From contig DSEL01000184.1 in assembly GCA_011056645.1 (NCBI GenBank), positions 7,699-71,698 on the forward strand: 64,000 nt of DNA. The letters run 5' to 3'. The notes beneath the pieces are model-generated. The model did not search any database, was not told where the DNA came from, and saw nothing but the letters and a program-made list of their open reading frames with translations. Shown piece by piece: positions 3,054-38,972 of the stretch. The number at the start of each line of letters is the position of its first letter. Within the stretch, counting starts at the first letter, position 1. The position numbers were made by a program, and so were the translations under genes. The stretch comes from Candidatus Sediminicultor quartus. Lineage in GTDB: Bacteria > Atribacterota > Phoenicimicrobiia > Phoenicimicrobiales > Phoenicimicrobiaceae.

Positions 3054-4298
3054 ATGATTCAACAAAATAGGATTTTTTTAACAATTTTAATCATTTTGTT
3101 GCTTTCTACTTCTGTATTAGCCGGAAGTTTTTCCGGTACTTTAACTTATTCCGGGCAATATAATTTTGCCCAAGATGAGCTGTCAAATACTCTAAATTTG
3201 GACCTTGACTATATTCATAGCCTCACCGACGATATCTTTGTAGAGGGAGATCTGCTCATTAGATATTCTGACAGTTCTTCTACCAATCCTCTGATGATTG
3301 TACCCAAGGAACTGTATATTGGCACTTATGACCTTATTATTCCTAATTTAGATTTAAACGCAGGCAGGCTGATTGTAAGCTGGGGTTCATCGGATATGTT
3401 TAGCCCTTTGGATAACTTTAATCCTTCGCCTCCCGGGATATCTTTTGCGGATAGATCCTCCAGAAAGAGCGGAGTCTGGGCGGTTGATGCAACTTATTAT
3501 CTCAATGATATCACCTATCTGCAGGGACTATATCTTCCTCATTTTACTCCCTCATTCATGCCTGCAGGGTATGAAGAACAATTATATCTTTCCATGTTTT
3601 CTCCGGGATTTCAGGCACAGGGAATAGAAATAGATTCTATTAATTTAGACCGTAGTCTTCCCAAAAAACCAGCATGGGGAGTGAAACTGGGAAGAAGTTT
3701 TTCTACTTTTGATGCAGCGATCAGTTATTATAACGGATATTATCCCTTTGCTTATCCTGCGTCGGTAGAGCTCACTCCCGGAACTTCCGGGACATCTTTG
3801 AATTTAGGGTTGGAGTATCCCAAGAGAGATATCTTTGGATTTGAATTCCAGGGAGATTTCCCGGGGATTGAAGGGGCTACTTTAAGAGGGGATTTAGCCT
3901 ATATCATCCCACAACCCTGGCAAGTACAGGGTGAAGATATGCTAAAAGATCCTTACCTGAAAGCAATAATTGGTGCGGATTATACTACTTCTTTTGACCT
4001 CTACCTGAATGTAGCTTTTATTTGGGGATTTATCCTTGAAGAAGGAAAGCAATGTTCCCCTTATATTTTACTAAATGCCGAAAAAGACTTGAAAGATTCC
4101 AAGCTCACTCCGAATTATGTAGGAGTAATAAACCTTCAAGACGGAAGCATGATAAATTCTCTCGGTGCCAGTTATGATTTCACCGATGATTTTTCAATGA
4201 CCCTCTCTTACGTTAAGATTTTTGGGGACCAGGATTCAAAGCTGGGGCAGGTAAAAAGCGCAGAGGGATTATATGTCTCAGCAGAGTGGTGTTTCTAA
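3054..4298 (+). CDS. secreted hypothetical protein, possibly outer-membrane beta-rich, associated with the MMPL exporter
   Basis: GAGGAGG RBS 6 nt upstream and a clear signal peptide (LLLSTSVLAGS). Rich in aromatic residues, Gly and Ser. No recognisable catalytic motif. Confidence 0.4.
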   Translation: MIQQNRIFLTILIILLLSTSVLAGSFSGTLTYSGQYNFAQDELSNTLNLDLDYIHSLTDDIFVEGDLLIRYSDSSSTNPLMIVPKELYIGTYDLIIPNLDLNAGRLIVSWGSSDMFSPLDNFNPSPPGISFADRSSRKSGVWAVDATYYLNDITYLQGLYLPHFTPSFMPAGYEEQLYLSMFSPGFQAQGIEIDSINLDRSLPKKPAWGVKLGRSFSTFDAAISYYNGYYPFAYPASVELTPGTSGTSLNLGLEYPKRDIFGFEFQGDFPGIEGATLRGDLAYIIPQPWQVQGEDMLKDPYLKAIIGADYTTSFDLYLNVAFIWGFILEEGKQCSPYILLNAEKDLKDSKLTPNYVGVINLQDGSMINSLGASYDFTDDFSMTLSYVKIFGDQDSKLGQVKSAEGLYVSAEWCF

Positions 4299-4885
4299 TG
4301 GATAGTGAAAAGATGAACAAAAAAGAAAAAATTTTAGAGGCTGCCCGGGATACGTTTTTTAGCAAGAGCTTCTACGAAGCCACCATGGATGATATCGCTC
4401 AGCTTTCCGGAATAAAAAAATCTACTATCTATTACTATTTTCCTTCTAAAATAGATTTGGCTTCAGAGCTTTTGGAGCAACATATAAAAAATATTTTTGA
4501 AAAGACCAGCGAAATAATTGATACCACCCATAATATTAAACTACGGATTAAAATGATCATAGACTTTTATCTAAAACTTTTAGCAGAAAATTCCAAAATA
4601 TTTATTATTCTGGAAAGAATTGCTTATGATTTTATGCAAAAAGACCACAGCAAAAAAAAGATAAATAAGCTCTTCGAAAAGTTAAGAGACAAACAGAAGA
4701 AATTGAGTGACCTCTTTGGAGACATCATCTTATCTTCCGGTAAAAAAGTAAGCGGAGATCTATTTTTATATTCCCTGGTTGCTGCCCTGGGAAGAGTTAT
4801 TTTTGAAAATGTGTCTCAAGGAAGAACTCCCAAGAAAGAGGATCTCCTGGCTATCGGCGATATTTTCATCGCCTCAGTAAATTGA
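4298..4885 (+). CDS. TetR/AcrR family transcriptional regulator
   Basis: N-terminal TetR HTH (ILEAARDTFFSKSFYEATMDDIAQLSGIKKSTIYYYFPSK). The start overlaps the preceding stop as TAATG. The TGA stop lies inside REP copy 4883-4909. Confidence 0.8.
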   Translation: MDSEKMNKKEKILEAARDTFFSKSFYEATMDDIAQLSGIKKSTIYYYFPSKIDLASELLEQHIKNIFEKTSEIIDTTHNIKLRIKMIIDFYLKLLAENSKIFIILERIAYDFMQKDHSKKKINKLFEKLRDKQKKLSDLFGDIILSSGKKVSGDLFLYSLVAALGRVIFENVSQGRTPKKEDLLAIGDIFIASVN

Positions 4886-4909
4886 TACAGAGAACCGTCC
4901 CCTGTATCA
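4883..4909 (+). repeat. REP-like 27-bp imperfect palindrome (TGATACAGAGAACCGTCCCCTGTATCA), copy 1
   Basis: 8-bp perfect inverted arms TGATACAG/CTGTATCA around an asymmetric 11-nt core. Identical to the copies at 9081 and 29397 and the reverse complement of 28476. Sits exactly between the convergent stops of the TetR and potC-like genes. Confidence 0.85.
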
Positions 4910-4912
4910 ATT

Positions 4913-5767
4913 CTATTCTTCTTTGCTTTTGAAATAAAAATTTCCGACGGCAATAATGGAAACAGTTACGATTAAAATAAAAGATATGGCATTGATAACC
5001 GGGGTAGACCCATCTCTTACCTGTTGATATAAAATGATAGGCAGGGTGGGTTGAGAGCTAATCAGGAATGTGGTGGTATTAAAATTCTCAAAGGACATCA
5101 GGAAGGCTATGGCTGCACCTCCTATAACCGAGGGCTTGAGATACTGAAGGGTAATAAACCAGATAACCGAAAATCGATTGGCGCCAAGATCGGACGCGGC
5201 TTCTTCAAGCGTTCTATCAAATTTTCTTAACCTTGCTGAAATAACCATGGTTACGATAGTGGTAATAAAGGAAAACTGACCAAGAACTATAAGCCAGAAA
5301 CCTGGCCTTAGTATTTTTATATCAATCCCAAAAACATTCTCAATAAATAATCCTACTGTAGTCGAGAATAAAAGTATGGATATACCGAGAATAACTCCCG
5401 GAATAACCAAGGGAGCGATCATTAAGAAATATAAAGCACCCTTAAATTTGAAATCTTCCTGTTCAAAGAGAAAAGCAGCCATCGTTCCGACAATAGTTGA
5501 AAAGATAGAAACTGAAATTGCTACTTTAAAGGAAGTAGCTATCGCCCTTAAATTCATTTTGTCATAAAATATACCAATTTTTTCAGGCCCTTTCCCAAAA
5601 AACCAATCAAAAGTAAACCCTTTCCAGGGCAAAGAGGGGAACATAGAATCATTAAAGGCCAGAATCATGGTGATAACCAGCGGAGCAAATAGAAAAATAA
5701 AATAGAAAAGTGCAAAAAGCCTGTAACCCGATAAATAACTTTTAGAATTTGGTAATGTTCTTATCAT
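4913..5767 (-). CDS. potC: ABC transporter permease, spermidine/putrescine PotC-like
   Basis: Six-TM permease with an EAA loop (EEAASDLGANRFSVIWFITLQYLKP). Last gene of a binding-protein/ATPase/permease/permease operon. Confidence 0.7.
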   Translation of the reverse strand: MIRTLPNSKSYLSGYRLFALFYFIFLFAPLVITMILAFNDSMFPSLPWKGFTFDWFFGKGPEKIGIFYDKMNLRAIATSFKVAISVSIFSTIVGTMAAFLFEQEDFKFKGALYFLMIAPLVIPGVILGISILLFSTTVGLFIENVFGIDIKILRPGFWLIVLGQFSFITTIVTMVISARLRKFDRTLEEAASDLGANRFSVIWFITLQYLKPSVIGGAAIAFLMSFENFNTTTFLISSQPTLPIILYQQVRDGSTPVINAISFILIVTVSIIAVGNFYFKSKEE

Positions 5768-9080: not shown

Positions 9081-9107
9081 TGATACAGAGAACCGTCCCC
9101 TGTATCA
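9081..9107 (+). repeat. REP-like 27-bp palindrome, copy 2
   Basis: Exact copy of TGATACAGAGAACCGTCCCCTGTATCA, ending 1 nt before the TAA stop of the kinase gene (9109-9111) and upstream of the potD-like promoter. Confidence 0.85.
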
Positions 9108-9108
9108 T

Positions 9109-10053
9109 TTATACACCATATTCTTCCTGAATAAATTTGATATTATTATGAGCATTTTCAAATTTCACTTTTCCGTAATTATAGAAATCGAATTTGATCT
9201 TGGAAATATTATTCTGGATCATGCTCCAAATGAACCAGAAAATGTCGGGAAAGGGTTTAAAAATATCAATCAGGTAGAGGGTTTTTTCGAACTCCTTGTC
9301 CTCACAGTAATGCCTTACTATACTTTTCTCTACATCTCGCGGAACTAAAATCTCCTGGAACATATCCGCCAGATCATAATAGCGAGGTGCCATCCCCGCA
9401 TACTCCCAGTCAATAAGATACATCGGTTCAGGATATCTTCCCCGATCAGCCTCATCTACCAGCACGAAATTATCCGCTAACAGATCATTATGGCTTGCCG
9501 TGTATTCACTCTCCGGAATATTGATCGTTTCGGCGATCTTTTCCAGGTTTTTAATTATACCATCAATATCAAACTCCGGACAACTAATCTCCAGATTGTT
9601 TAAGATCCTGTGCATCTCTTTCACTTTATTTAAAGGATTAAAGATTTGAGGGAACTCAACTCCACTTTGGTGAATTTTTCGTATTGGCCTGGCAATCTTT
9701 TCATGAAGCTCTTCCTTTAAGAAATCAGAGTTTTTTAATACATACCCCGGAATAAATTCTACAATGGTAACCCTATATTCAGGCATATATTTTACTAGTT
9801 TAGGTGAAATGCCTACCTTGGCTACTCTCCTCATGATTTCTGCTACGATGCTTCTACTAATGAAAGTCTCTGTTTTATCACCGTAGATTCTTATGGTAAG
9901 ATCCCCTTTTTCAGAACGCACCCGATACAATTTATTAGTAATACCACCACTTAATACACCTATCTTTATTGCTGTGTTCTTCCACTCTGGCATGAGTTTA
10001 AAAAATAGTTTTTCGGTAAACTCTACATCTAAAAGATTCGTGACTTCGCTCAT
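9109..10053 (-). CDS. choline/ethanolamine kinase family phosphotransferase (APH-fold)
   Basis: Brenner motif HNDLLADNFVL and the choline-kinase motif LIDWEYAGMAPRYYDLADMFQE. GGAGG RBS. Last gene of an ABC importer operon. Confidence 0.65.
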   Translation of the reverse strand: MSEVTNLLDVEFTEKLFFKLMPEWKNTAIKIGVLSGGITNKLYRVRSEKGDLTIRIYGDKTETFISRSIVAEIMRRVAKVGISPKLVKYMPEYRVTIVEFIPGYVLKNSDFLKEELHEKIARPIRKIHQSGVEFPQIFNPLNKVKEMHRILNNLEISCPEFDIDGIIKNLEKIAETINIPESEYTASHNDLLADNFVLVDEADRGRYPEPMYLIDWEYAGMAPRYYDLADMFQEILVPRDVEKSIVRHYCEDKEFEKTLYLIDIFKPFPDIFWFIWSMIQNNISKIKFDFYNYGKVKFENAHNNIKFIQEEYGV

Positions 10054-12959: not shown

Positions 12960-12987
12960 CTAAATTTCCTTCTAACTAATAAAATTT

Positions 12988-13016
12988 AGAGATAGGGCAA
13001 CAACCGCCCTATCTCT
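12988..13016 (-). promoter_or_regulatory. intra-operon stem-loop (11-bp stem) after the binding-protein gene
   Basis: AGAGATAGGGC-aacaacc-GCCCTATCTCT, between the binding-protein stop (13039) and the ATPase start (12959). Confidence 0.5.
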
Positions 13017-13038
13017 ATTTAGTTAATTATAATAATAC

Positions 13039-26610: not shown

Positions 26611-26647
26611 GTAAAAACGATAGAGGACAAATACCTTTTATCACTTT

Positions 26648-28453
26648 TTAAGAATCCCCCAGGACGGCAATGGCCGCTCCGCCAATACCTATATGGATAC
26701 TCAAGGCAGGCGATGCTTCGGCGATCATTATTTTTGAAGTATTAAAGATGGCTCGAATTTTATTACTATACCATCCAGCCAATTCCGGTGCTGCTACATG
26801 AGCAATTGCAAAACGGGGATTTTTAACTCTTGTAGCAAACTGAATCGCCAAATCTACGGTCTTAAGAATTACTCTTTTTTGCCCTATCACTTTAGCTGCT
26901 TCGACAATGTTACCGTCAGAATTTAGCGTTAAAATGGGTTTCAGGTTAAGAAGCGTACCCAGAATTCCTTTGGCGATATTCAAGCGCCCGCTACGCATCA
27001 AATATTTTAAGGTAGGTATGCTGATAAAGATTTTAACATTTTCGGTAGCATCTTTTATCCGATCAATGATTTCTTCAAGGTTAAGTCTTTCTTGAATTAA
27101 TTGAGCTGCCTCGGCCACTAATAATCCCAAAGCAACCGAACTTGTTTTGCTATTTACAATGTGAATTCTATTGCTGTAATGCTTATCCTGGCAGCCCATA
27201 CGCGCACCCTGGATCGTTCCGCTTAATTTTTCAGAGATATGTAAAGAAATTATCGATTGATATTTTTGGACAATTTCCTTATAAGCTTCGGCAAAAAAAG
27301 CGGGAGGAGGCTGGGAAGTGGACAGCTTTTCCTGCGAGGTCTCTAAAATATGAATAAAATCTTTTGGTTTAATTTCTACCTGGTCCAAATAACTCTTTTC
27401 CCCAACCTGAATCACGACGGGTACAACTTTAATATTATATTTTTTAATGATCTCCAGCGGTAAATCACAAGTTGAATCGGTAACCAATCCTATACTTTCT
27501 CCGTGAGCATCCGCTTTAATCTTGGTATGTTGTTTACGCATATCATCAACTTTGGTTTTCACGATAGTTCCGCATTCAGACAATTCAGTAAATACATCCT
27601 CGGGGTTATCGGTGTGAATATGGATATGGGCTTTGTGTTCAGAGCCGGCAATAATCAGTGAATCTCCTAGGGAGGAAAGTTTTTGCCTCACTGTTCCCAG
27701 ATCTAAGTTAATTCCTTCCAGCAAGCATTCAGCACAGAACCGGAAATTAATTCCGGAATCAATTTTATCTAAATTAAAACTCCTTATTCTCTCGCCGGTA
27801 GAGCTAAGTACCTCTAATGATCTTACTTTACCGTATTCAATAAAATTAACGATCCCTTCCAAGATATTAACGAAACCCTGAGCTCCGGCATCAACTACCC
27901 CTGCTCTTTTTAATAGCAGCAGTTTATCGGGCGTTTTAGCCAGGGATTCCTTTGCTTTCGATAATGATTTTTTAAAAAGTTCCACAAAATCAGGGGTATA
28001 GGGAGCATTTTTTACCAGATGCTCCGCCCAGTCTTTCATTACCGTAATAATTGTTCCTTCTTGAGGCTGAGAAATGGCTTTCCGGGCTTGTTCCGCAGCC
28101 TTGATAGCTGCTTGAGCAAAGGATTCTGTGCTAAGACGTACTTTATCCTGGGTTGCTTCTGCCAGGCCTTGAAAAAATTGAGCCAAGATTGCTCCAGAGT
28201 TACCACGTGCTCCCATTAAAGCCGAATCGGCAATCACGCTGCTAACCCTGGCAAAAGAAGCATCTTTACATTTTTTTACCTCTTTTACAATATTGCTCAT
28301 GGTTGCTGCCAGATTCGTACCGGTGTCTCCATCAGCTACCGGAAAAACATTAATATCATTCAGATACTGCTCCATCTGATTGATACGTTGGGCGGAAGTG
28401 ATAATAAAACGCTTGAAGCGGATACCATTTATATATTTGATTTGAATTTTCAT
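26648..28453 (-). CDS. DAK2-domain protein with a C-terminal DegV-like domain (YloV/FakA-like fatty-acid kinase component)
   Basis: N-terminal Dak2 motif (VADGDTGTNLAAT...GARGNSGAILAQF). The C-terminal half resembles DegV (LVTDSTCDLPLEIIKKYNIKVVPV...). Confidence 0.65.
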   Translation of the reverse strand: MKIQIKYINGIRFKRFIITSAQRINQMEQYLNDINVFPVADGDTGTNLAATMSNIVKEVKKCKDASFARVSSVIADSALMGARGNSGAILAQFFQGLAEATQDKVRLSTESFAQAAIKAAEQARKAISQPQEGTIITVMKDWAEHLVKNAPYTPDFVELFKKSLSKAKESLAKTPDKLLLLKRAGVVDAGAQGFVNILEGIVNFIEYGKVRSLEVLSSTGERIRSFNLDKIDSGINFRFCAECLLEGINLDLGTVRQKLSSLGDSLIIAGSEHKAHIHIHTDNPEDVFTELSECGTIVKTKVDDMRKQHTKIKADAHGESIGLVTDSTCDLPLEIIKKYNIKVVPVVIQVGEKSYLDQVEIKPKDFIHILETSQEKLSTSQPPPAFFAEAYKEIVQKYQSIISLHISEKLSGTIQGARMGCQDKHYSNRIHIVNSKTSSVALGLLVAEAAQLIQERLNLEEIIDRIKDATENVKIFISIPTLKYLMRSGRLNIAKGILGTLLNLKPILTLNSDGNIVEAAKVIGQKRVILKTVDLAIQFATRVKNPRFAIAHVAAPELAGWYSNKIRAIFNTSKIMIAEASPALSIHIGIGGAAIAVLGDS

Positions 28454-28475
28454 TTAAAGCATCATCACCCCATTC

Positions 28476-28502
28476 TGATACAGGGGACGGTTCTCTGTAT
28501 CA
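28476..28502 (-). repeat. REP-like 27-bp palindrome, copy 3 (reverse-complement orientation: TGATACAGGGGACGGTTCTCTGTATCA)
   Basis: Exact reverse complement of the other three copies. 6 nt beyond the 3' end of the transposase gene. Confidence 0.85.
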
Positions 28503-28507
28503 TTTTA

Positions 28508-29317
28508 TTATTTTATTATTTGAACTGTTACCGGGCTAACTCTCAAAATATTTGCTATCTCTCGAATGGATAAATTAGAATTCAATTTCAAATAACTTAT
28601 CAGTTTGTTTCTATGAAATTGATACTTTCTTTCTTTTAAATTAGATAAACCAAAGTTATATTCTTTAAAATAATTTTGGATATATTGCTTTGCTCCTTTC
28701 TCATTAATCAAACTGTGGCTATATTTCTTGTCTTCTTCTGGTAATTCAATAATATTGCTTTTTTCTAGTCTATTCTGATGATGGTATCGAACAAATAAAT
28801 CAATCGCTTTGTCTTTATCCGGAGAAAATAAAGATAATATATGTTCAAGCTCAATTAAAAAGTTTTTCTGCGGTAATTTTGCAATATACAAACAGTAACT
28901 GCTCCAAGTATATTCTTCTAAATTATTAACCATAAAGGCATTTAATGGATTGTTATGAATATAACTCAGTACTGCCAATAAATAATTCTCATTTTCAATT
29001 GGTTCACTTTTAAAACGATCTTGAAAAAGATGACCAATCTGCTGATATTTCTTATTGAAGTAATTCACGTAGCTCACATTTATTCTTTTCATTGTCTGGG
29101 AAAGCTGTTCATCTTTTTCTTTAATTAACAGATGGACATGATTATTCATTAAACAATAAGCATAAATTATATATTCCCTTTTTTGTTTTACTTTTTTCAG
29201 TACTTTTATGAACTTGAATCTATCCTCATCTTCTAAAAATATATCTTGTTTCCGATTGCCGCGAATCATAACATGATAAATATTTGTTGAACTTAATTTT
29301 CGAGCTTTTCTTGGCAT
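28508..29317 (-). CDS. REP-associated tyrosine transposase (RAYT; IS200-like Y1/HUH transposase) with C-terminal HTH extension
   Basis: HUH motif (NNHVHLLIKE), a catalytic-Tyr region (LSYIHNNP), WSSY after the core domain, then an extra segment of about 110 aa ending in an HTH (LSIREIANILRVSPVTVQIIK). Confidence 0.7.
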   Translation of the reverse strand: MPRKARKLSSTNIYHVMIRGNRKQDIFLEDEDRFKFIKVLKKVKQKREYIIYAYCLMNNHVHLLIKEKDEQLSQTMKRINVSYVNYFNKKYQQIGHLFQDRFKSEPIENENYLLAVLSYIHNNPLNAFMVNNLEEYTWSSYCLYIAKLPQKNFLIELEHILSLFSPDKDKAIDLFVRYHHQNRLEKSNIIELPEEDKKYSHSLINEKGAKQYIQNYFKEYNFGLSNLKERKYQFHRNKLISYLKLNSNLSIREIANILRVSPVTVQIIK

Positions 29318-29396
29318 AATAATCTTCGTGCTACCTTTAATTGATTTTATTATTTAACATTATATCATAATATCATATTAATATATTTTTATCTTT

Positions 29397-29423
29397 TGAT
29401 ACAGAGAACCGTCCCCTGTATCA
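29397..29423 (+). repeat. REP-like 27-bp palindrome, copy 4
   Basis: Exact copy. Its last 3 nt (TCA) are the TGA stop codon of addA on the minus strand. Confidence 0.85.
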
Positions 29424-32400
29424 TTTTCCTACAAAATATATGCTGGTTTGTTTCACGGGCTCTCCGGAGATTTCCTGCCATACCCGGTGGTAAAGAGTGA
29501 TCTGCTTTTGATAGACCTCGACTAATTTAGGGTAATCCTTCTCCTGTTCGGGCCGATCAGTTTTGTAATCGATCACTACCCAGCCATCGGCTTCCTTAAA
29601 GACCAGGTCGATCGTCCCAGACAGGATTATAGGGCAGGAATCATGACCCTCTAATTGGCTAAAAAGAGGATGAGCGGGTCCGATATGGAGTGTAAAGGGG
29701 ACTTCGCTATATTTAAACTCTGCTTTTTTTAGACGCTTAAATAAATCACTCACTTTAAATTTTTTGACCAGCTCTTCTAATTCTGCTTTTCTCCGGGGAG
29801 ATATTCCCTGATTTTCCAGAACTTTTTCTATCTGTAAAGACAATAACTGTTCATCAGGCTCTTTCTTCACTAAATAATCAAAGATTTTATGAACGGCAGT
29901 CCCCCAGGCAGTCCCGCCAACATCAATGGTAGTAATCTTTAGGTGTTTTTCTTCATCCTTAAAATCCGTCGGGGTCTTCTCATCATAACTAATTTTAGAT
30001 AGATCCTTCAGCCATTGCCCGCATTCCTTTTGCATTTTTGCATAATCTTCAAGCAAAGATTCTTTTTCTTTGGCTTTTTCTTTTCCTTTTCCTTCTATTT
30101 CCCCCATTTCCCCCGGAGACAACAATTCCGCTTCCGGGACAGCGATATTCATCTCATCTCTCATATTTTTCAATAAAGGCTGCCAGGGATTATGCTTATT
30201 GCCCTTATGATTTAAACTGCTGATAACCAAAAGATTCTTAGCCCGGGTGGCCGCTACATAGAGCAGTCGGATATCCTCTGCTTCATGGTAAGAGGTCTCA
30301 AGCTGACCATAATCATCCCAATTTTTAGGTTGAGCTAATCTTTTCCCTTTATGGTAAGCATTGGAACGGCATACCAAAAAATGGCCGTACGGTTGCTCTC
30401 CCGTTCTTTCCACATGATAAGTTGGTTCATGGACAGCAGTATTATAAGGAATAGCTAAAAATACTACCGGAGATTCCAGGCCTTTAGCTTTATGTAAATT
30501 CATAATCCGGACAGTATTTTCTTCGGTTAGTATATCCAATTCCTCTTCGATCCCGGCTTCTAACATCTTCTCCAATTGGTCTACCATGGCAGCAAATCCT
30601 ATCATTTCTTCTGTCTCTGCTTTTCTTAATTTCTCCAGAATAAAATAGAGCTCCCCGCATCGGTTTAGGTTATAACCTTCTAAACAGGAGTGAGGAAGTA
30701 AGCCTGAATCAATCATGATCTTTTCCATTGTTGTAACCGGTGGCAGTTCTTGAGACCAGAGATGGAATTGTCTCAGCCGGCCAAAAACTCTCCTAAAATT
30801 CTCTTTTAGTTTTGGACTTAGCTTTTCCGGTATCTTTTCATAAAAATCAAATTCTCCGCCTGATTCTTTAAAATGATATAAGTCATCATCAGAAAATCCA
30901 AAGAATATCCCGCGCAGAACGGCGATGATCAGCACCTGATTTTCTATATCCCTCAGTAAGCGAAATAACTTTAATAATTCTTTTACCTGTGGGGATGCAT
31001 TTAAAGAGGCGTATCCTGAGATCGTAAAGGGTATTCCCTGCTCTGCCAGCGTGCGGGCATAGATATCCATCCCTCCTTTATAGCGTAGAAGGATCATAAA
31101 GTCCTTATAAGTGGCTTGCAGTGAAGTACCTGCTTTTATCTCTTCTTCGGTCCGCCCTAATTGAAATCCCTTATCGACCATAAGACGAATAACCCGGGCA
31201 ATCAATTGGGCATCCTGCCGGATCGTATCATTCTTGTTGGATTCTTTTGAAATAATGAGCTGCCTTACCCCGGAAAGATAATGGTTTGGGTCATCTTCCC
31301 GAATGGTCTGCATCGGTGAATATACCGCCTGAAATTTTTCCTGACCACCGGAAAATAATTCTTCAAATAGAGGGTTGAGATAAGAACCGATAGAATGCAG
31401 CGAGCGAAAATTAGCCTGCAATTTTAAAACCTTTCCTCCGCTTCTTTCAATCAACTCCCTTACCCGATTATAGATGGCAATATCTGCCCGACGAAAGCGA
31501 TAGATAGACTGCTGGGGATCCCCTACCACAAATAAGGAACCGGGATGCGGTATCAATTTAGTCCAGTTCTTTTCCTTAAAATCCGAACCGGTAAGATAGA
31601 AGATTATTTCTGCCTGAATAGGGTCGGTATCTTGAAATTCATCTACCAGCAGGCATTTATATTTTTGCTGAAAATATTGGCGTACTTCAGGATGTTCCCT
31701 TAATAGCTGAGAGGTCTTTAAGAGCAAATCCTGAAAATTAAGCATCGAGATCTTCTGGCGCAATTGGTGATAATATTCCACTGCGGGCAGAAGGAATTTG
31801 ATGGTATCGGCATAACAATATTCCCGCCATTGCTGCAAGGTCGGATTAATCACTTTTTCCTGAAGTTCTAAAACAAGGGAATCTCTATACTCTTTGGCCT
31901 TTTCTTTGGAAGTCCAGCGGTTTAAAGTAATATGGTTCGATTTAGGGCTAAAATCACCTGCAAAATTTTCCAGTAATTTTATCTGATTAAAATCTTCTCT
32001 CATATAATCATAAAACCCCTTCATCCTTTTAACGCTTAAAACGGCTTCTTGTAATTGATCATAACCCATTTTCGGTTCTTCCTCCGGGATATATGGGCTG
32101 GCTTCATCACTAAAAGATATGATCTCTTTGACCGCTTTTTTTATATCCGGTTTTGGTAAAACGGGGAAAGAAGGATTAACTTCCGGATAAGCGCACAGCG
32201 TTTTATAACAATCGGTCAGTTCGGAGGGCTTTATGCCTAATTCTTCCAGATGGAGGAGAGAAGGAGATTCTTCTATCTTAAGATTAAGCAGATACCTTTT
32301 CCAGGCTTCTTCTTTCAATAAAATATCATCAAGGTCATCCAGCTCGGCAAATTCCGGGTCGAGCCCGGCTTCGATCGGCCTTTCCCTTAATAGGCGGGCG

Positions 32401-36351: not shown

Positions 36352-36960
36352 CTATAACTCATAACTATTATAACTTCTGATCTGATTTATTTCTTTGCGT
36401 TCTTTAGGTTGTATTTCGTCAGACATCGGATAGCCTATAGTTATAATAAGTTCAACTCTTATTTGTGGGGGAATATTAACCAGTTTTTTGACCCCCTTTT
36501 CATTAAACCATCCCAGCATACAAGTTCCCAAGCCTTCTTCTGTGGCCTGAAGACAAAGGTGCTCGGCAGTAATTCCGATATCGATTAAACTAAATTGCTT
36601 ATCCTTAAGTATGCTCCCAATTCTACTAAAAAAACTTGGTCTTTCTGAAAGTAAAAGAATTAAAGCAGGTGCTTGCAAAGAAAATCGATTGAAAGATATC
36701 ACTCTATTAAACGTTTTTCTTGCTACTGCTTCTTTTAGTTTCAGGTCATCTATTACAATAAAGCTCCAGGGTTGAGAGTTATTAGCTGAAGGAGCAAGCC
36801 GCGCTGCCTCCAGACAGCTCTCAATCTTCTCCCGCTCAACAGCTTTATCCAAATATTCTCTTACACTTTGTCTTTTTTTTACTAAATCTAAAAATTTCAC
36901 TAAATCCCTCCGGGAACAGAAAACCGTCTTCTGTTCTTTTTTCTTTTTTTGTATTTTCAC
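36352..36960 (-). CDS. nitroreductase family protein
   Basis: RQSVREYL and ARLAPSANNSQPWSFIVI (FMN-nitroreductase motifs). The start overlaps the upstream stop as ATGA. Confidence 0.7.
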   Translation of the reverse strand: MKIQKKKKEQKTVFCSRRDLVKFLDLVKKRQSVREYLDKAVEREKIESCLEAARLAPSANNSQPWSFIVIDDLKLKEAVARKTFNRVISFNRFSLQAPALILLLSERPSFFSRIGSILKDKQFSLIDIGITAEHLCLQATEEGLGTCMLGWFNEKGVKKLVNIPPQIRVELIITIGYPMSDEIQPKERKEINQIRSYNSYEL

Positions 36961-38972
36961 GCTCTTTGAATTTCAACTAAACAATTATGGAAAGCAGTCC
37001 CATAACCTATATCACTGATATATTCTCCGGTGAGTTTATTGAGGTTGGCTTGGTGTACTCCATCCCACCAGCCAAAATAAGCATGCACTATTCCCGGTGC
37101 GACTTTTGAGGTAATAAAAACCTTTAAAGTTATATTCCCCCTATGATTATAGACTTGTACCCTATCATTTTCATTAATTCCTCTTTTAGCTGCATCCTGA
37201 GGATTGATCCAGACAAAAGGTTCTTCTTTCAGAGTAGATAGATTTGAAAATTGAGAATTCATTTTATCACAGGCATGGCTGGTGATCAAAGATAAAGGAT
37301 ATTTACTAAAGATATCGGGAGAGCTATTCCTATTTTCTGCCGGTTCCCTATAGGCTGGCAGGGGGTCTTTGCCCCATTTATCTTTCATTCTCTGGCTGAT
37401 AAATTCTATTTTTCGGGTAGGAGTATTAAATTTGTGGTCACTAAAAGCCCTCTCTTGATATCCGGGGTAAAGATAGGGCGTATCTTTTAGTTTATCGATA
37501 TCCATATCTAAATGAGAGCTGTTAATTATTTTTTCAATGGTACTCAAATCATTTACCGGTAAATAATCTAAGTTGAAATCAAACTTTTTAGCTAAAAGCC
37601 GATAGATCTCACTTTCATGTTTGGCTTCACCTGGCGGTTCGATTATTTTTTGCTGTAATTGAAGGTAAGAATGACCGTACCCGATAATCAAGTCATAGTA
37701 TTCAAACATCGAAGCTGCCGGCAAGATAATGTCTGCCATCCTGGCGGTATCGGTTAAAAAAAGATCGGCCACCACAATGAAATCCAGTTGATTCATCGCC
37801 AGGGCAAGGAGATTGGTGTTGGGGTTGCTGGTCATAGGATTAGCCTGTTCAACCCACAAAGCTTTTATCGGAGGATCGGCTTGCCGATCCAATTTACTGG
37901 CAAGTGTTGCAACCGCTATAGAATGACGGATCCTCTGGGGTTTGGGCGGGGAAAAAGGCCAATTTAATTCGGGTACCTGCCTGTCGCTGAAGTAAAAACC
38001 GCAGCCCTTTTTACCGATACTTCCGGTCAACGCCGGCAAAAGAGCAATGGCTCTGGTAGTCTGACCCCCATTGGTATATCTTTGAATCCCTATTCCGCAG
38101 ATAAGAGCATATCGGGGATTTTCTTTTAGCTCATTGATCAAACGATTAATCTTAGCGATAGGGACTCCAGTTATAGCCGACACTTTTTCCAAGGAATAAT
38201 CCTGAACCAATTCCTTAAATTCAGTAAAGCCAAAAGTATGTTGCTCAATAAAATAGTCATCAATGATATTATTTTTAATAAGCTGGTTGGCTATCCCCAG
38301 GGCAAGGCAGCCATCGGTTCCCGGCCGAGGATTTAAATAAAGGCTGCTTTTGGCTCCTGATTCATTTTCCCGAATATCTATGGTTATTAATTTCGCTCCC
38401 TTATCTACTGCCTGGTTCAGGTGATGCATTAAATGAACATTGGTATGGGCTGGATTTGAACCCCATAAGATGATTAATTTTGAGTTTTCCAGGTCAGAAA
38501 TCTTATTATGTTTTACTTCTCCATAAGTTAAAATGATGGCCTCCTGGCCTGCAGTATCACATAGTCCGCCATATGTGCTGGTAAAGCCGCCAAATTGATA
38601 CCAGAAACCATAAGCACAATTTTTCATCACTCCCAAATTAGCAAATCTATTAAAATATAAAACCGATTCCGGTCCATATTGCTCTTTAAAATTTCTCAGC
38701 TTTCGGTATAGGATATCTAAAGCCTGTTCCAAGTTTATTCTTTTAAACTCGCCGCTGCCGCGCTTGCCAACTCTTTGTAAGGGATATAATAATCTTTCCG
38801 AACTATAGAGCAAATTGGGATAGTGGTTCCCTTTAGAACATATTCTTCCTTTATTCACCGGACTATTACGATTTCCCCTTACCTTTGTTATCCTTCCTTT
38901 TTCTACCTCAACTTCCAATGAACAGGACCCAAAGCAATCCTTGGGACAAACAGAGTTGATGGTTTTGAACAT
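36957..38972 (-). CDS. molybdopterin (bis-MGD) oxidoreductase family protein, cytoplasmic type
   Basis: N-terminal 4Fe-4S motif (CPKDCFGSCSLEV...C) and molybdopterin-dinucleotide-binding regions. No Tat signal. Confidence 0.75.
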   Translation of the reverse strand: MFKTINSVCPKDCFGSCSLEVEVEKGRITKVRGNRNSPVNKGRICSKGNHYPNLLYSSERLLYPLQRVGKRGSGEFKRINLEQALDILYRKLRNFKEQYGPESVLYFNRFANLGVMKNCAYGFWYQFGGFTSTYGGLCDTAGQEAIILTYGEVKHNKISDLENSKLIILWGSNPAHTNVHLMHHLNQAVDKGAKLITIDIRENESGAKSSLYLNPRPGTDGCLALGIANQLIKNNIIDDYFIEQHTFGFTEFKELVQDYSLEKVSAITGVPIAKINRLINELKENPRYALICGIGIQRYTNGGQTTRAIALLPALTGSIGKKGCGFYFSDRQVPELNWPFSPPKPQRIRHSIAVATLASKLDRQADPPIKALWVEQANPMTSNPNTNLLALAMNQLDFIVVADLFLTDTARMADIILPAASMFEYYDLIIGYGHSYLQLQQKIIEPPGEAKHESEIYRLLAKKFDFNLDYLPVNDLSTIEKIINSSHLDMDIDKLKDTPYLYPGYQERAFSDHKFNTPTRKIEFISQRMKDKWGKDPLPAYREPAENRNSSPDIFSKYPLSLITSHACDKMNSQFSNLSTLKEEPFVWINPQDAAKRGINENDRVQVYNHRGNITLKVFITSKVAPGIVHAYFGWWDGVHQANLNKLTGEYISDIGYGTAFHNCLVEIQRA

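Follow-up and report, generated by a model that had tools for sequence, protein, structure and literature searches.

A domesticated-looking RAYT gene between inverted copies of a dispersed hairpin repeat in Candidatus Sediminicultor quartus

In a 64,000-nucleotide stretch of DNA from Candidatus Sediminicultor quartus, which was analysed over its whole length and is called the window below, the gene of a RAYT-type Y1 HUH enzyme lies between two inverted copies of a 27-bp hairpin repeat. The locus most probably represents a domesticated, chromosomally fixed RAYT-type ssDNA endonuclease/ligase together with its cognate dispersed hairpins, in the REPtron/TIRtron layout; we put the probability of this reading at roughly 0.8. 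REP/RAYT systems are the standard example of a transposase that has been domesticated and keeps a population of short repeats going. To our knowledge, all REP/RAYT biochemistry so far comes from the GTAG-type REPs of Proteobacteria. The kind of system described here is already known (REP/RAYT, TIRtron branch), and its 19-nt hairpin core is common to several phyla and not private to the host. The names TIRtron/TIRYT (PMC3733652), TnpA-Y1 subclass 2.1 (PMC6006769), and Group 1 RAYT (PMC5581495) are equated throughout. Subclass 2.1 is the largest RAYT class and is biochemically uncharacterised, and in the literature it stands without REP-like partners.

The RAYT protein and its class

The enzyme of 269 amino acids is encoded at 28508..29317 on the minus strand and is recognised by Pfam and NCBIfam profiles, an AF2 model, Foldseek, invariant residues, and HTH profiles. 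The Y1_Tnp profile (PF01797), which the preliminary description had proposed as a check, matches residues 13-123 with 58.8 bits, well above the cutoff of 23, and is matched by all 32 aligned relatives. The HUH and catalytic tyrosine motifs read from the ORF at the outset are borne out by the 32-sequence family alignment. H60-V61-H62 (29132-29140, within NNHVHLL) and Tyr119 (28961-28963, within YIHNNP) are invariant there, as is N123, and P124 is nearly so. The AF2 model (pLDDT 84.7) has the E. coli TnpA-REP structure 4ER8 as its top Foldseek match (E 6e-8, TMt 0.75), followed by ISDra2, IS608, and IS200 TnpA. H60-V61-H62 and Y119 align with the HmH and Y of 4ER8. The NCBIfam model REP_Tyr_transpos gives 74.6 bits, just under its cutoff of 80, a near miss of the kind expected outside the E. 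coli-type branch. The transpos_IS200 model gives 17.9 bits against a cutoff of 55.

The C-terminal tail has predicted helices at residues 206-267 and contains an HTH at approximately residues 236-266 (28520-28612). Among the 32 relatives, the tail gives weak matches to HTH_23 (7), HTH_28 (4), HTH_11 (14), and HTH_24 (13), all of which fall below the Pfam cutoffs. An AT-rich leader of 79 nt (29318..29396, minus strand) precedes the gene and is presumed to contain its promoter and ribosome-binding region. The promoter match in this leader is only weakly sigma-70-like (ATGATA-16-AATAAT, 29376-29349).

On these sequence features, that is, by its motifs, its tail, and its relatives, the protein is most probably a member of TnpA-Y1 subclass 2.1 (Group 1 RAYT, TIRYT). 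Y---NP defines class 2 and Y---Q defines class 1 (Quentin et al. 2018, PMC6006769), and YIHNNP is of the class 2 type, not class 1. According to the same study, subclass 2.1 proteins carry NHVH (or NH[YF]H), W[EQ] or FQ, and YIELNP or Y[IV]HLNP, and their C-terminal extension has HTH similarity (Bac_DnaA_C, HTH_23, or HTH_28). The window RAYT matches at NHVH and FQ, and its YIHNNP has N for L; a RAYT paralogue in the same lineage has YIHLNP. A P. aeruginosa relative with 38% identity (E 5e-32) carries the exact 2.1 signature of NHVH, WE, and YIELNP. It is flanked by 38-nt TIRs with GGGGACAG, which fits in 8/8 positions the GGGGWSAS motif shared by the flanking inverted repeats of TIRtrons (Di Nocera et al. 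2013, PMC3733652). The window repeat fits this motif in 7/8 positions (GGGGACGG), and the P. aeruginosa 12-mer GGGGACAGATCT differs from the window's GGGGACGGTTCT at two positions. Quentin et al. reported no REP-like sequences for subclass 2.1; the supplements of that paper hold no Clostridia entries, and their subclass 2.1 hairpins are limited to one Acidobacteria case.

The hairpin repeat in the window and in other genomes

The 27-mer TGATACAGGGGACGGTTCTCTGTATCA occurs in four exact copies in the window. The four are found at the positions first given for them; the count is unchanged when up to three mismatches are allowed, and the chance expectation from dinucleotide shuffles is 0.00. The copy 5' of the RAYT gene (29397..29423, minus strand; 48.0 bits with the covariance model) lies 79 nt upstream of the ATG, and its GGGG-form has the same sense as the gene. 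Its first three bases (TGA, 29421-29423, minus strand) form the stop codon of the upstream helicase ORF. The copy on the 3' side (28476..28502, plus strand), seen both as an exact match and with the covariance model, is the exact reverse complement of the 5' copy, so the inverted bracketing of the ORF stands as first described. The gap to the gene needs a small correction: the hairpin lies 5 nt, not 6, past the stop codon (28503-28507). A T-run follows this copy on the plus strand, and a terminator scan of 28300-29600 finds it to be the sole terminator-like site there. At the orthologous site of about ten related contigs the 27-mer is 100% identical, while its flanks are approximately 86% identical.

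The two solo copies, both exact and both on the minus strand, also match the covariance model. The copy at 9081..9107 lies 1 nt past the stop codon of an ORF (9109-10053, minus strand) that resembles choline/ethanolamine kinases, with its GGGG-form in the gene sense. The copy at 4883..4909 fills the gap between two convergent genes. It lies 3 nt past the stop of an ABC-permease ORF (4913-5767, minus strand), whose sense it shares, and on the plus strand its TGA (4883-4885) serves as the stop of a TetR-family ORF (4286-4885, plus strand). A degenerate family member, GAACAGAAGACGGTTTTCTGTTC, is found by the covariance model at 36914..36936 on the minus strand (20.3 bits, E 3e-4), just 3' of the ORF at 36957-38972 (minus strand). 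The consensus GGG/TCT is changed there to AAG/TTT with pairing kept, and the RNA fold is -9.0 kcal/mol. A decayed relic at 26618..26643 (plus strand; TGATAAAAGGTATTTGTCCTCTATCG as read on the minus strand) lies 4 nt past the FakA/DegV stop codon and was recognised by eye in comparison with orthologous contigs. Six of these (L121, L124, L128, L129, L142, and L178) have a recognisable copy at its position, such as TGACAGAGGACCGTCCCCTG, and in two others (L143 and L173) the copy has decayed as in the window. The window thus holds five recognisable copies and one relic per 64 kb, and its dispersed copies are all singlets. The flanks of the window copies read ccattc, ggaaaa, tataaa, and tagaat. A further covariance-search match at 12981-13022 is an unrelated palindrome. 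An Rfam search of 28000-30000 (E up to 10) yielded nothing beyond chance matches to snoRNA and U6, and a full-text literature search for the hairpin motif returned only unrelated C. elegans primers.

Folding of the repeat as ssDNA, another check suggested beforehand, shows that both strands form hairpins far better than shuffled sequences (-5.7 and -5.3 kcal/mol; z -4.7 and -5.5). As RNA, the GGGG sense strand folds at -13.3 kcal/mol and the other strand at -8.3 kcal/mol. The hairpin consists of an invariant asymmetric core, CAGGGG-ACGGT-TCTCTG, and an outer stem of 4 bp that varies between genomes yet remains complementary. Each of the four outer pairs occurs as 5-6 pair types, and their covariation score is 0.27, compared with 0.10 in shuffles (0/500 reach 0.27) and at most 0.09 in slid controls. 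Since the outer-stem pairs covary above both controls, the hairpin is a structure and not merely a site. Changes in the inner stem keep the structure only in part, with 27 to T/C and 24 to G/A at one position. Half of the variants at this position break the pair, so inner-stem covariation gives no clear sign that the G-rich strand is the one that folds.

More than 120 genome stretches share the 19-nt core ACAGGGGACGGTTCTCTGT without a single change; they span several phyla and come from Bacillota, Atribacterota, a Desulfovibrio MAG, and a Flexilinea MAG. The TGAT/ATCA outer stem appears in none of the at least 120 core matches listed. The preliminary description had considered the repeat family specific to this organism or lineage, which is true of the outer 4 bp of the stem only and not of the core. 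It had also expected copies beyond the pair around the RAYT gene, and these exist in the window as well as in related metagenome contigs; the exact 27-mer is present in 61 metagenome stretches, mostly at sites that do not match the window. In 500 kb of such contigs, the covariance model (E up to 0.01) gives 178 matches, a number that includes re-hits of the palindrome on the opposite strand. Scattered copies occur singly or in pairs, for the most part directly at the 3' ends of genes, and other core-bearing genomes often have inverted doublets 20-60 bp apart. Where a copy lies within 5 nt of a stop codon, 43 are in the gene sense and 10 antisense. In viral sequences the core was found in only five stretches.

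In 117 distinct hairpins, the six flanking positions at each foot contain no conserved tetranucleotide and have a mild bias only (A-rich 5' and T-rich 3'). A canonical REP with a GT[AG]G or CGTC tag at the foot of the stem was therefore rejected, as no flanking base is conserved in these 117 hairpins; CGTC is present only inside the hairpin loop, on the C-rich strand. From 4 to 64 kb of the window, the plus strand has a negative GC skew, which makes the minus strand the putative lagging-strand template. The GGGG-form lies on this strand in three of the four exact copies and in the degenerate copy, a strand argument that rests on 4-5 copies and is confounded with gene orientation.

Gene layout, synteny, and alternative readings

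In 13 homologues with 35-86% identity from Atribacterota and Bacillota, one hairpin lies upstream in the gene sense and an inverted one lies just past the stop. An upstream GGGG-form in the gene sense with an inverted copy 0-5 nt beyond the stop is seen in the window and in L182, L187-L190, L192, L011, L088, L099, L120, L130, and L193. The gap from the upstream hairpin to the gene is roughly 40-160 nt in homologues. This layout and the TnpA-REP-like fold uphold the REPtron named in the preliminary description, but not one of the canonical type, as the GTAG/CGTC tag is missing and the enzyme is most probably an HTH-tailed member of subclass 2.1. The RAYT gene, present once in the window, stands between genes for a UvrD/AddA-like helicase-nuclease and a FakA/DegV protein, with no tnpB near it in the window. 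The order helicase, RAYT, FakA/DegV is kept in at least ten related contigs. Among them, identity is 82-90% for RAYT, 68-81% for the helicase, and 70-83% for FakA/DegV. The gene occupies one fixed locus under purifying selection, and this synteny, the high conservation, and the lack of a nearby tnpB make it look domesticated rather than mobile. Two RAYT paralogues with 41% identity share the same hairpin. RAYT homologues are found on 21 of 72,556 plasmids, every one with less than 40% identity. Spread by plasmids or phages was rejected as a route, as such carriage is essentially absent (21/72,556 plasmids; five viral stretches with the core).

A conventional IS200/IS605 element with a tnpB partner had been named as the finding that would overturn the REPtron. 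What surrounds the gene instead is the helicase and FakA/DegV pair, in conserved order in at least ten contigs, and no other observation listed beforehand as contrary was made. An IS200/IS605 identity of the unit was rejected on the lack of tnpB, the transpos_IS200 score below cutoff, YIHNNP in place of Y---Q, the identical inverted ends, and synteny. A broader possibility is that the whole of 28476-29423, a unit of 948 bp, acts as an autonomous element of IS-like kind (an active TIRtron) that moves as a block via its 27-bp terminal inverted repeats, with the solo hairpins as its footprints or miniature derivatives. Its ends are indeed identical and inverted, and homologues of different genera lie in unrelated gene contexts. 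The family is patchy across phyla, which implies a degree of horizontal transfer. Of the RAYT groups, Group 1 also resembles an IS most closely: duplicates make up 6.3%, and 1.2% are on plasmids (Bertels 2017, PMC5581495). However, the gene stays at the same locus in at least ten related contigs and is conserved above its housekeeping neighbours, so it behaves unlike an IS, and it is single-copy in the window. Solo hairpins far exceed genes, with a homologue at 4/120 hairpin loci among the matches listed; plasmids seldom carry a homologue, and viral contigs seldom carry the core. IS200/IS605 enzymes excise a single strand. Because the ends here are inverted, the strand to be recognised at one end is the opposite of that at the other, which does not suit IS200/IS605 excision. 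We consider an autonomous element quite improbable. No fresh insertion, seen as a filled against an empty site, was caught; the orthologous site that was examined shows old copies persisting or decaying.

The remaining readings concern the hairpins themselves. They could be mainly RNA-level elements (terminators, 3' stabilisers, or attenuators) under selection for expression, with a link to RAYT that is only historical. The position of copies against stop codons (43 sense, 10 antisense within 5 nt), the much better RNA fold of the GGGG sense strand, the terminator-like score of the copy at 28476, and the FakA/DegV-side copy, which is kept at the same site in relatives and is followed by a T-run, all speak in this direction. 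Sense orientation is, however, equally predicted by a lagging-strand-template preference for co-directional genes. A T-run follows the GGGG-form 3' in 25/178 copies, and an equal number is found on the other strand, so there is no general or oriented terminator signature. The intrinsic terminator was rejected as a general reading, since besides these 25/178 T-runs only 1/4 window copies qualifies, and it faces no upstream gene. Moreover, a terminator needs no invariant asymmetric 19-nt core common to phyla, and the constant inverted pair around every homologue is left unexplained. This explanation thus appears unlikely. Alternatively, the repeat could be a double-stranded operator, TGATACAG-N11-CTGTATCA, bound by a dimer of the HTH tail, with the protein as an exapted regulator of a dispersed regulon. 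The sites are palindromic, the C-terminal HTH is conserved, and the 5' copy lies upstream of the RAYT gene's own leader. Nevertheless, the palindromic arms vary and covary while the conserved part is asymmetric, which is a signature of intramolecular pairing and not of a dimeric operator. The sites are at gene 3' ends and not at promoters, and the family shows no change in the catalytic HUH and Tyr residues. An operator role is accordingly given very little credence.

Relation to known systems, proposed mechanism, and meaning

Like TIRtrons and subclass 2.1, the RAYT locus encodes a RAYT-like protein of greater length whose motifs are NHVH, FQ/W[EQ], and Y..NP and whose C-terminal tail has an HTH. 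The inverted flanks come close to the GGGGWSAS type of TIRtrons (7/8 positions), with the upstream copy in the gene sense and the downstream copy abutting or overlapping the gene end; dispersed copies are moderately abundant and sometimes dimers, and Clostridia are among the hosts. The repeat here differs in being a compact 27-nt hairpin with covarying arms instead of a long non-palindromic TIR (38 nt in P. aeruginosa), and in a 19-nt core identical across phyla. Compared with subclass 2.1, the protein has YIHNNP in place of Y[IV]HLNP or YIELNP, and a hairpin is present where Quentin et al. reported none.

The E. coli REPtron (TnpA-REP, also called RayT or YafM, 4ER8, with its REP/BIME) provides the closest solved fold. 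In both systems, a single-copy, vertically inherited HUH/Tyr enzyme lies between inverted copies of a dispersed extragenic palindrome, an imperfect hairpin whose G-T pairs make its two strands unequal. However, identity to E. coli TnpA-REP is only 18% in the structural alignment (sequence E 0.014), and the protein here has an extra HTH tail of approximately 100 amino acids. The repeat lacks a 5' GTAG guide or another conserved flanking tag, and its conserved determinant is inside the loop and inner stem. Canonical RAYT REPs are species-specific, while the core here is not. The Pseudomonas REPIN-RAYT system (Bertels and Rainey) is similar in its inverted doublets, 20-60 bp apart in other core-bearing genomes here, and in a single-copy, syntenic RAYT with housekeeping-like conservation. 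It differs in that the window's dispersed copies are singlets, the RAYT here is of Group 1 and not of Groups 2 or 3, and two 41%-identity paralogues go with one hairpin instead of one REPIN family per RAYT. With IS200/IS605 (IS608, ISDra2), the enzyme shares the catalytic superfamily and the fold, and IS200/IS605 enzymes also recognise ssDNA hairpins. Here, in contrast, there is no tnpB, the motif is Y..NP and not Y...Q, the ends are identical and inverted instead of distinct left and right hairpins on one strand, and the RAYT gene is immobile in its lineage.

By analogy with E. coli TnpA-REP and IS608 (PMC8266576), we infer how binding, the cleavage site, and strand transfer by RAYT would proceed. 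The G-rich hairpin strand would fold whenever DNA is exposed as a single strand, be it in repair or as the lagging-strand template of a replication fork. The Y1 domain would recognise the conserved loop and inner stem and cut the hairpin via a 5'-phosphotyrosine intermediate at Tyr119. Re-ligation of the cut hairpin to another end could then copy, move, or homogenise singlets or inverted doublets. The hairpins would be mobilised and the RAYT gene would not, presumably because its two ends lie on different strands. Additional DNA binding, in targeting or in autoregulation at the 5' copy, is the probable role of the HTH tail, and the hairpins are likely to affect mRNA 3' ends secondarily. That the RAYT enzyme disseminates the hairpins in this manner is, on balance, the account we favour.

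More tentatively, and with somewhat less than even confidence, we suggest that subclass 2.1 has a cognate REP-type hairpin in Bacillota and Atribacterota, with a recognition core that hardly varies across phyla and with drift and covariation confined to the outer stem. If this is true, the repeat would be a 'universal REP', in contrast to canonical RAYTs, whose REPs are particular to each species. The TIR motif GGGGWSAS in proteobacterial TIRtrons would in that case represent this recognition element stripped of its hairpin, and one defined 27-nt substrate would serve in vitro work on the whole of subclass 2.1. The hairpins overlap with stop codons, interrupt the assembly of metagenomes (contigs L183-L186 end there), and go unannotated; a simple pattern or a covariance model would bring out hundreds in each genome. 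The locus supplies a clean, minimal, putative enzyme-substrate pair for the HTH-tailed subclass 2.1 and extends the REP/RAYT system to Atribacterota and many Clostridia. It also suggests that a putative recognition core can stay fixed over phylum-scale divergence.

The RAYT protein and hairpin copies in the window

The ORF at 28508-29317 (minus strand), here called the RAYT gene, encodes a protein of 269 aa. Its assignment to the Y1/HUH transposases in the preliminary description was borne out by the Pfam Y1_Tnp profile (58.8 bits, cutoff 23), and the NCBIfam profile REP_Tyr_transpos scored 74.6 bits, slightly below its cutoff of 80. The motifs H60-V-H62, G95-H-L-F-Q-D-R, and Y119-I-H-N-N-P show no or almost no variation among 32 relatives with 44-86% identity. 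In a Foldseek search, the AlphaFold model (pLDDT 84.7) was closest to the E. coli REP-associated transposase 4ER8 (E 6e-8, TM 0.75 on the target), followed by ISDra2, IS608, and IS200 TnpA. 4ER8 was also the sole meaningful match in a PDB sequence search (E 0.014). Residues ~206-267 form an additional helical domain at the C-terminus, and weak helix-turn-helix (HTH) profile matches recur in the family (HTH_11, HTH_24, HTH_23, and HTH_28). Extra DNA binding and autoregulation at the 5' hairpin copy are the obvious options for the role of this tail. The family is large, comprising 1,023 clusters at E ≤1e-30 (50% identity) and 33,326 at E ≤1e-3.

The 27-mer TGATACAGGGGACGGTTCTCTGTATCA is present in four exact copies, as previously described, at 4883-4909 (-), 9081-9107 (-), 28476-28502 (+), and 29397-29423 (-). 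Dinucleotide-preserving shuffles of the window contained none, with up to three mismatches permitted. The last two copies lie 3' and 5' of the RAYT gene and are indeed mutually inverted around it. The stop codon is separated from the 3' copy by 5 nt rather than the 6 nt first stated, and the 5' copy is 79 nt upstream of the ATG. Each strand of the 27-mer forms a hairpin far better than shuffled controls. The G-rich strand (GGGG-form) can gain G-T or G-U pairs, and its fold is stabler than that of the opposite strand (AGAG-form). The difference is clearest as RNA (-13.3 vs. -8.3 kcal/mol).

A covariance model of the hairpin, trained on 46 examples, recovered the four copies and a degenerate fifth, GAACAGAAGACGGTTTTCTGTTC, at 36914-36936 (-), just past the stop codon of the ORF at 36957-38972 (-). 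In this copy, the consensus GGG/TCT is replaced by AAG/TTT, both sides being changed with the pairing kept, and the outer stem GAAC/GTTC is that of another subfamily, as in the 75% homologue locus L192. Comparison with orthologous contigs revealed a decayed sixth copy at 26618-26643, 4 nt after the FakA/DegV stop codon. This site holds a recognisable copy in six relatives (L121, L124, L128, L129, L142, and L178), where a T-run comes next, and is decayed in two others. On the timescale of ~20% protein divergence, copies can thus either survive or decay. Beyond the relic, the window has a separate terminator-like hairpin, GAGCCTTTCT...AGAAAGGCTC. A perfect palindrome at 12981-13022, TAGAGATAGGGC-N7-GCCCTATCTCTA, lies in AT-rich surroundings. 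It matches both strands of the model weakly, is unrelated to the family, and is probably a bidirectional terminator.

A selected hairpin structure with a conserved core and a covarying outer stem

The inner 19 nt of the 27-mer, ACAGGGGACGGTTCTCTGT, form a core found in more than 120 stretches among the matches listed, with one genome searched per species. These include Lachnospiraceae, Oscillospiraceae, Syntrophomonadaceae, Peptococcaceae, Atribacterota, a Desulfovibrio MAG, and a Flexilinea MAG. The repeat had been thought specific to this organism or lineage, which does not hold for the core, as it spans several phyla. The bases directly outside the core depend on the genome yet are complementary. 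The outer stem, usually 4 bp long, is tgat/atca in the window and ggag/ctcc, taag/ctta, ccac/gtgg, tcaa/ttga, or gtg/cac elsewhere. Among 72 distinct examples, each of the four outer pairs occurs as 5-6 standard pair types, and the covariation score is 0.27 vs. 0.10 in shuffles (0 of 500 reach 0.27) and ≤0.09 in slid controls. Core-internal variants are rare and preserve pairing only partly. From these sequence patterns, we read the core as sequence for recognition by a protein, whereas the outer stem would be purely structural. No conserved tag (GTAG, CGTC, or other) was found outside the stem. Neither an Rfam family nor a paper in open-access text matched the motif.

Several rearranged forms were observed. 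In stutter arrays, truncated left arms are stacked immediately 5' of a full hairpin. The unit is the outer stem plus ACAG, at times reaching GGGGACGG or beyond. Such arrays occur in metagenome contigs carrying the exact 27-mer (L124, L131, L138, L145, L156, L165, and L178) and in other stretches (L034, L044, L074, L077, L078, L080, L086, L100, and others). A truncated left arm lies within 50 nt upstream of 39 of 291 hairpins vs. 7 in a mirrored control, and truncated right arms lie downstream in 15 vs. 1. Replication slippage at the hairpin and aborted strand transfer are possible origins. In the alignment of the 27-mer contigs (L121-L181), chimeric hairpins join left and right outer arms of different subfamilies, for example TAACACAG...CTGTATCA (n=7) and TGATACAG...CTGTTCCA (n=5), as expected if exchange occurs within the conserved core. 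In L134 and L157, a TetR-family gene has an inverted doublet at its 3' end, with the GGGG-form first and the AGAG-form after a 12-nt spacer. At the corresponding end in the window, the AGAG-form singlet at 4883-4909 alone is retained; by eye, ~25 of 30 nt of the C-terminal sequence are alike, the gene being an orthologue or a paralogue. Since the palindromic arms put direct repeats in the doublet, it could collapse to either singlet.

A fixed gene and dispersed hairpins

Homologues with flanks were compared from a Caldatribacteriota MAG (86% identity, L182), the L192 MAG (75%), Sporomusa rhizae, Thermotalea metallivorans, Maledivibacter halophilus, and Formimonas warabiya (47-49%), four Clostridia MAGs (38-51%), and Acetoanaerobium noterae (35%). 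In all of them, a hairpin precedes the ATG by ~40-160 nt, its GGGG-form being in the gene sense, and an inverted copy or doublet lies 0-5 nt past the stop codon. Core drift is slight, e.g., CAGGGGACGGTTCCTTG and AGGGACGGTTCT. The arrangement of hairpin, gene, and inverted hairpin is a family property. A Pseudomonas aeruginosa plasmid relative (38% identity across the catalytic core; motifs NHVH, WE, and YIELNP) is bracketed by 38-nt non-palindromic inverted repeats rather than hairpins. These contain GGGGACAGATCT, which differs at 2 positions from GGGGACGGTTCT of the window. REP/RAYT systems usually have one REP family per RAYT. Here, however, a second paralogue (L125, L130, L171, and L172; NHIHLL, FQDRY, and YIHLNP) with 41% identity to the window protein has members of the same 27-mer family on both sides, so that two divergent enzymes share one hairpin.

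The RAYT gene is fixed in place, and the hairpins are dispersed. Its window neighbours are ordinary: a UvrD/PD-(D/E)XK helicase-nuclease and a Dak2-DegV fusion. At least 10 of the 27-mer contigs keep the gene order of the window (helicase, RAYT, FakA/DegV, then TldD), with identities of 82-90% for RAYT, 68-81% for the helicase, 70-83% for FakA/DegV, and 82-88% for TldD. The exact 27-mer was found in 61 metagenome stretches. About 10 of these cover the orthologous position at the 3' end of RAYT, where the flanks are ~86% and the 27-mer 100% identical; most of the rest are at sites without a match to the window. The 27-mer contigs hold several outer-stem subfamilies, and the model gave 178 matches (E ≤0.01) in their 500 kb, some of which hit one palindrome a second time on its other strand. 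Plasmids hold almost no homologues (21 of 72,556 records, every one below 40% identity), and viral contigs almost no core (5 stretches). Four short contigs (L183-L186) stop inside the 3' hairpin or directly behind it, with model matches cut at the contig end; the repeat thus apparently disrupts assembly. Upstream of the RAYT leader in L183, a DDE_Tnp_1 transposase gene takes the place of the helicase and 5' hairpin.

Placement, mechanism, and relation to known systems

Every window copy is at the 3' end of a gene. The TGA that opens the 27-mer is the stop codon of the TetR-family ORF (4883-4885) and, on the minus strand of the 5' copy, of the upstream 1106-aa helicase ORF (29421-29423). The L182 helicase likewise ends at a TGA immediately 5' of the hairpin core. 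Counted over all loci, 43 hairpins with a stop codon no more than 5 nt away are in the gene sense and 10 are antisense. By analogy with E. coli REPs near stop codons, such a hairpin could lower expression of the helicase and TetR-family genes. A general terminator role was rejected, since a T-run follows the GGGG-form in 25 of 178 copies and equally often on the other strand.

GC skew is negative on the plus strand over 4001-64000, and all but one of the ORFs examined near repeats are on the minus strand, which places the window within a single replichore. The minus strand is probably the leading one and carries the lagging-strand-template sequence. The GGGG-form is on this strand in the degenerate copy and in three of the four exact ones. 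IS200/IS605 enzymes prefer the lagging-strand template, and the bias fits such a preference, with few copies and confounding by gene orientation.

By extension from E. coli TnpA-REP, IS608, and ISDra2, we infer that the G-rich strand would fold while single-stranded and that the Y1 domain would read the invariant loop and inner stem. Tyr119 could then cut and rejoin DNA, so that hairpins are copied or homogenised, while the gene would stay put because its two ends are on opposite strands. E. coli TnpA-REP binds, cleaves, and rejoins folded single-stranded REPs (PMC8266576).

An IS200/IS605 identity is rejected: the IS200 equivalog profile gave 17.9 bits (cutoff 55), and no tnpB was found among the window neighbours adjoining the RAYT gene. 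The element also differs from the canonical GTAG REPtron, its hairpin being without the GTAG tag. Instead, it fits the TIRtron/TIRYT branch. Subclass 2.1 of TnpA-Y1 has NHVH, W[EQ] or FQ, and YIELNP or Y[IV]HLNP motifs, a median length of 238 aa, and a C-terminal HTH tail, and corresponds to Group 1 of Bertels plus most of the TIRYTs of Di Nocera (Quentin et al. 2018, PMC6006769). Members of Group 1 are spread over 21 classes, Clostridia among them, and their flanking 16-mers show modest repetition (Bertels et al. 2017, PMC5581495). The inverted repeats of TIRtrons have GGGGWSAS in common; some are self-complementary, and their families are of moderate abundance (Di Nocera et al. 2013, PMC3733652). 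Quentin et al. explicitly state that they found no REP-like sequence for subclass 2.1 (PMC6006769), and such a hairpin for this subclass appears undescribed in open-access text, as does the identity of the core across phyla. The original observation is confirmed and its REPtron interpretation supported, with two corrections: the core extends beyond this lineage, and the branch is probably TIRYT/subclass 2.1. The 'TIR' of Bacillota and Atribacterota takes the shape of a compact hairpin whose arms covary, a form that likewise appears new to the open-access text.
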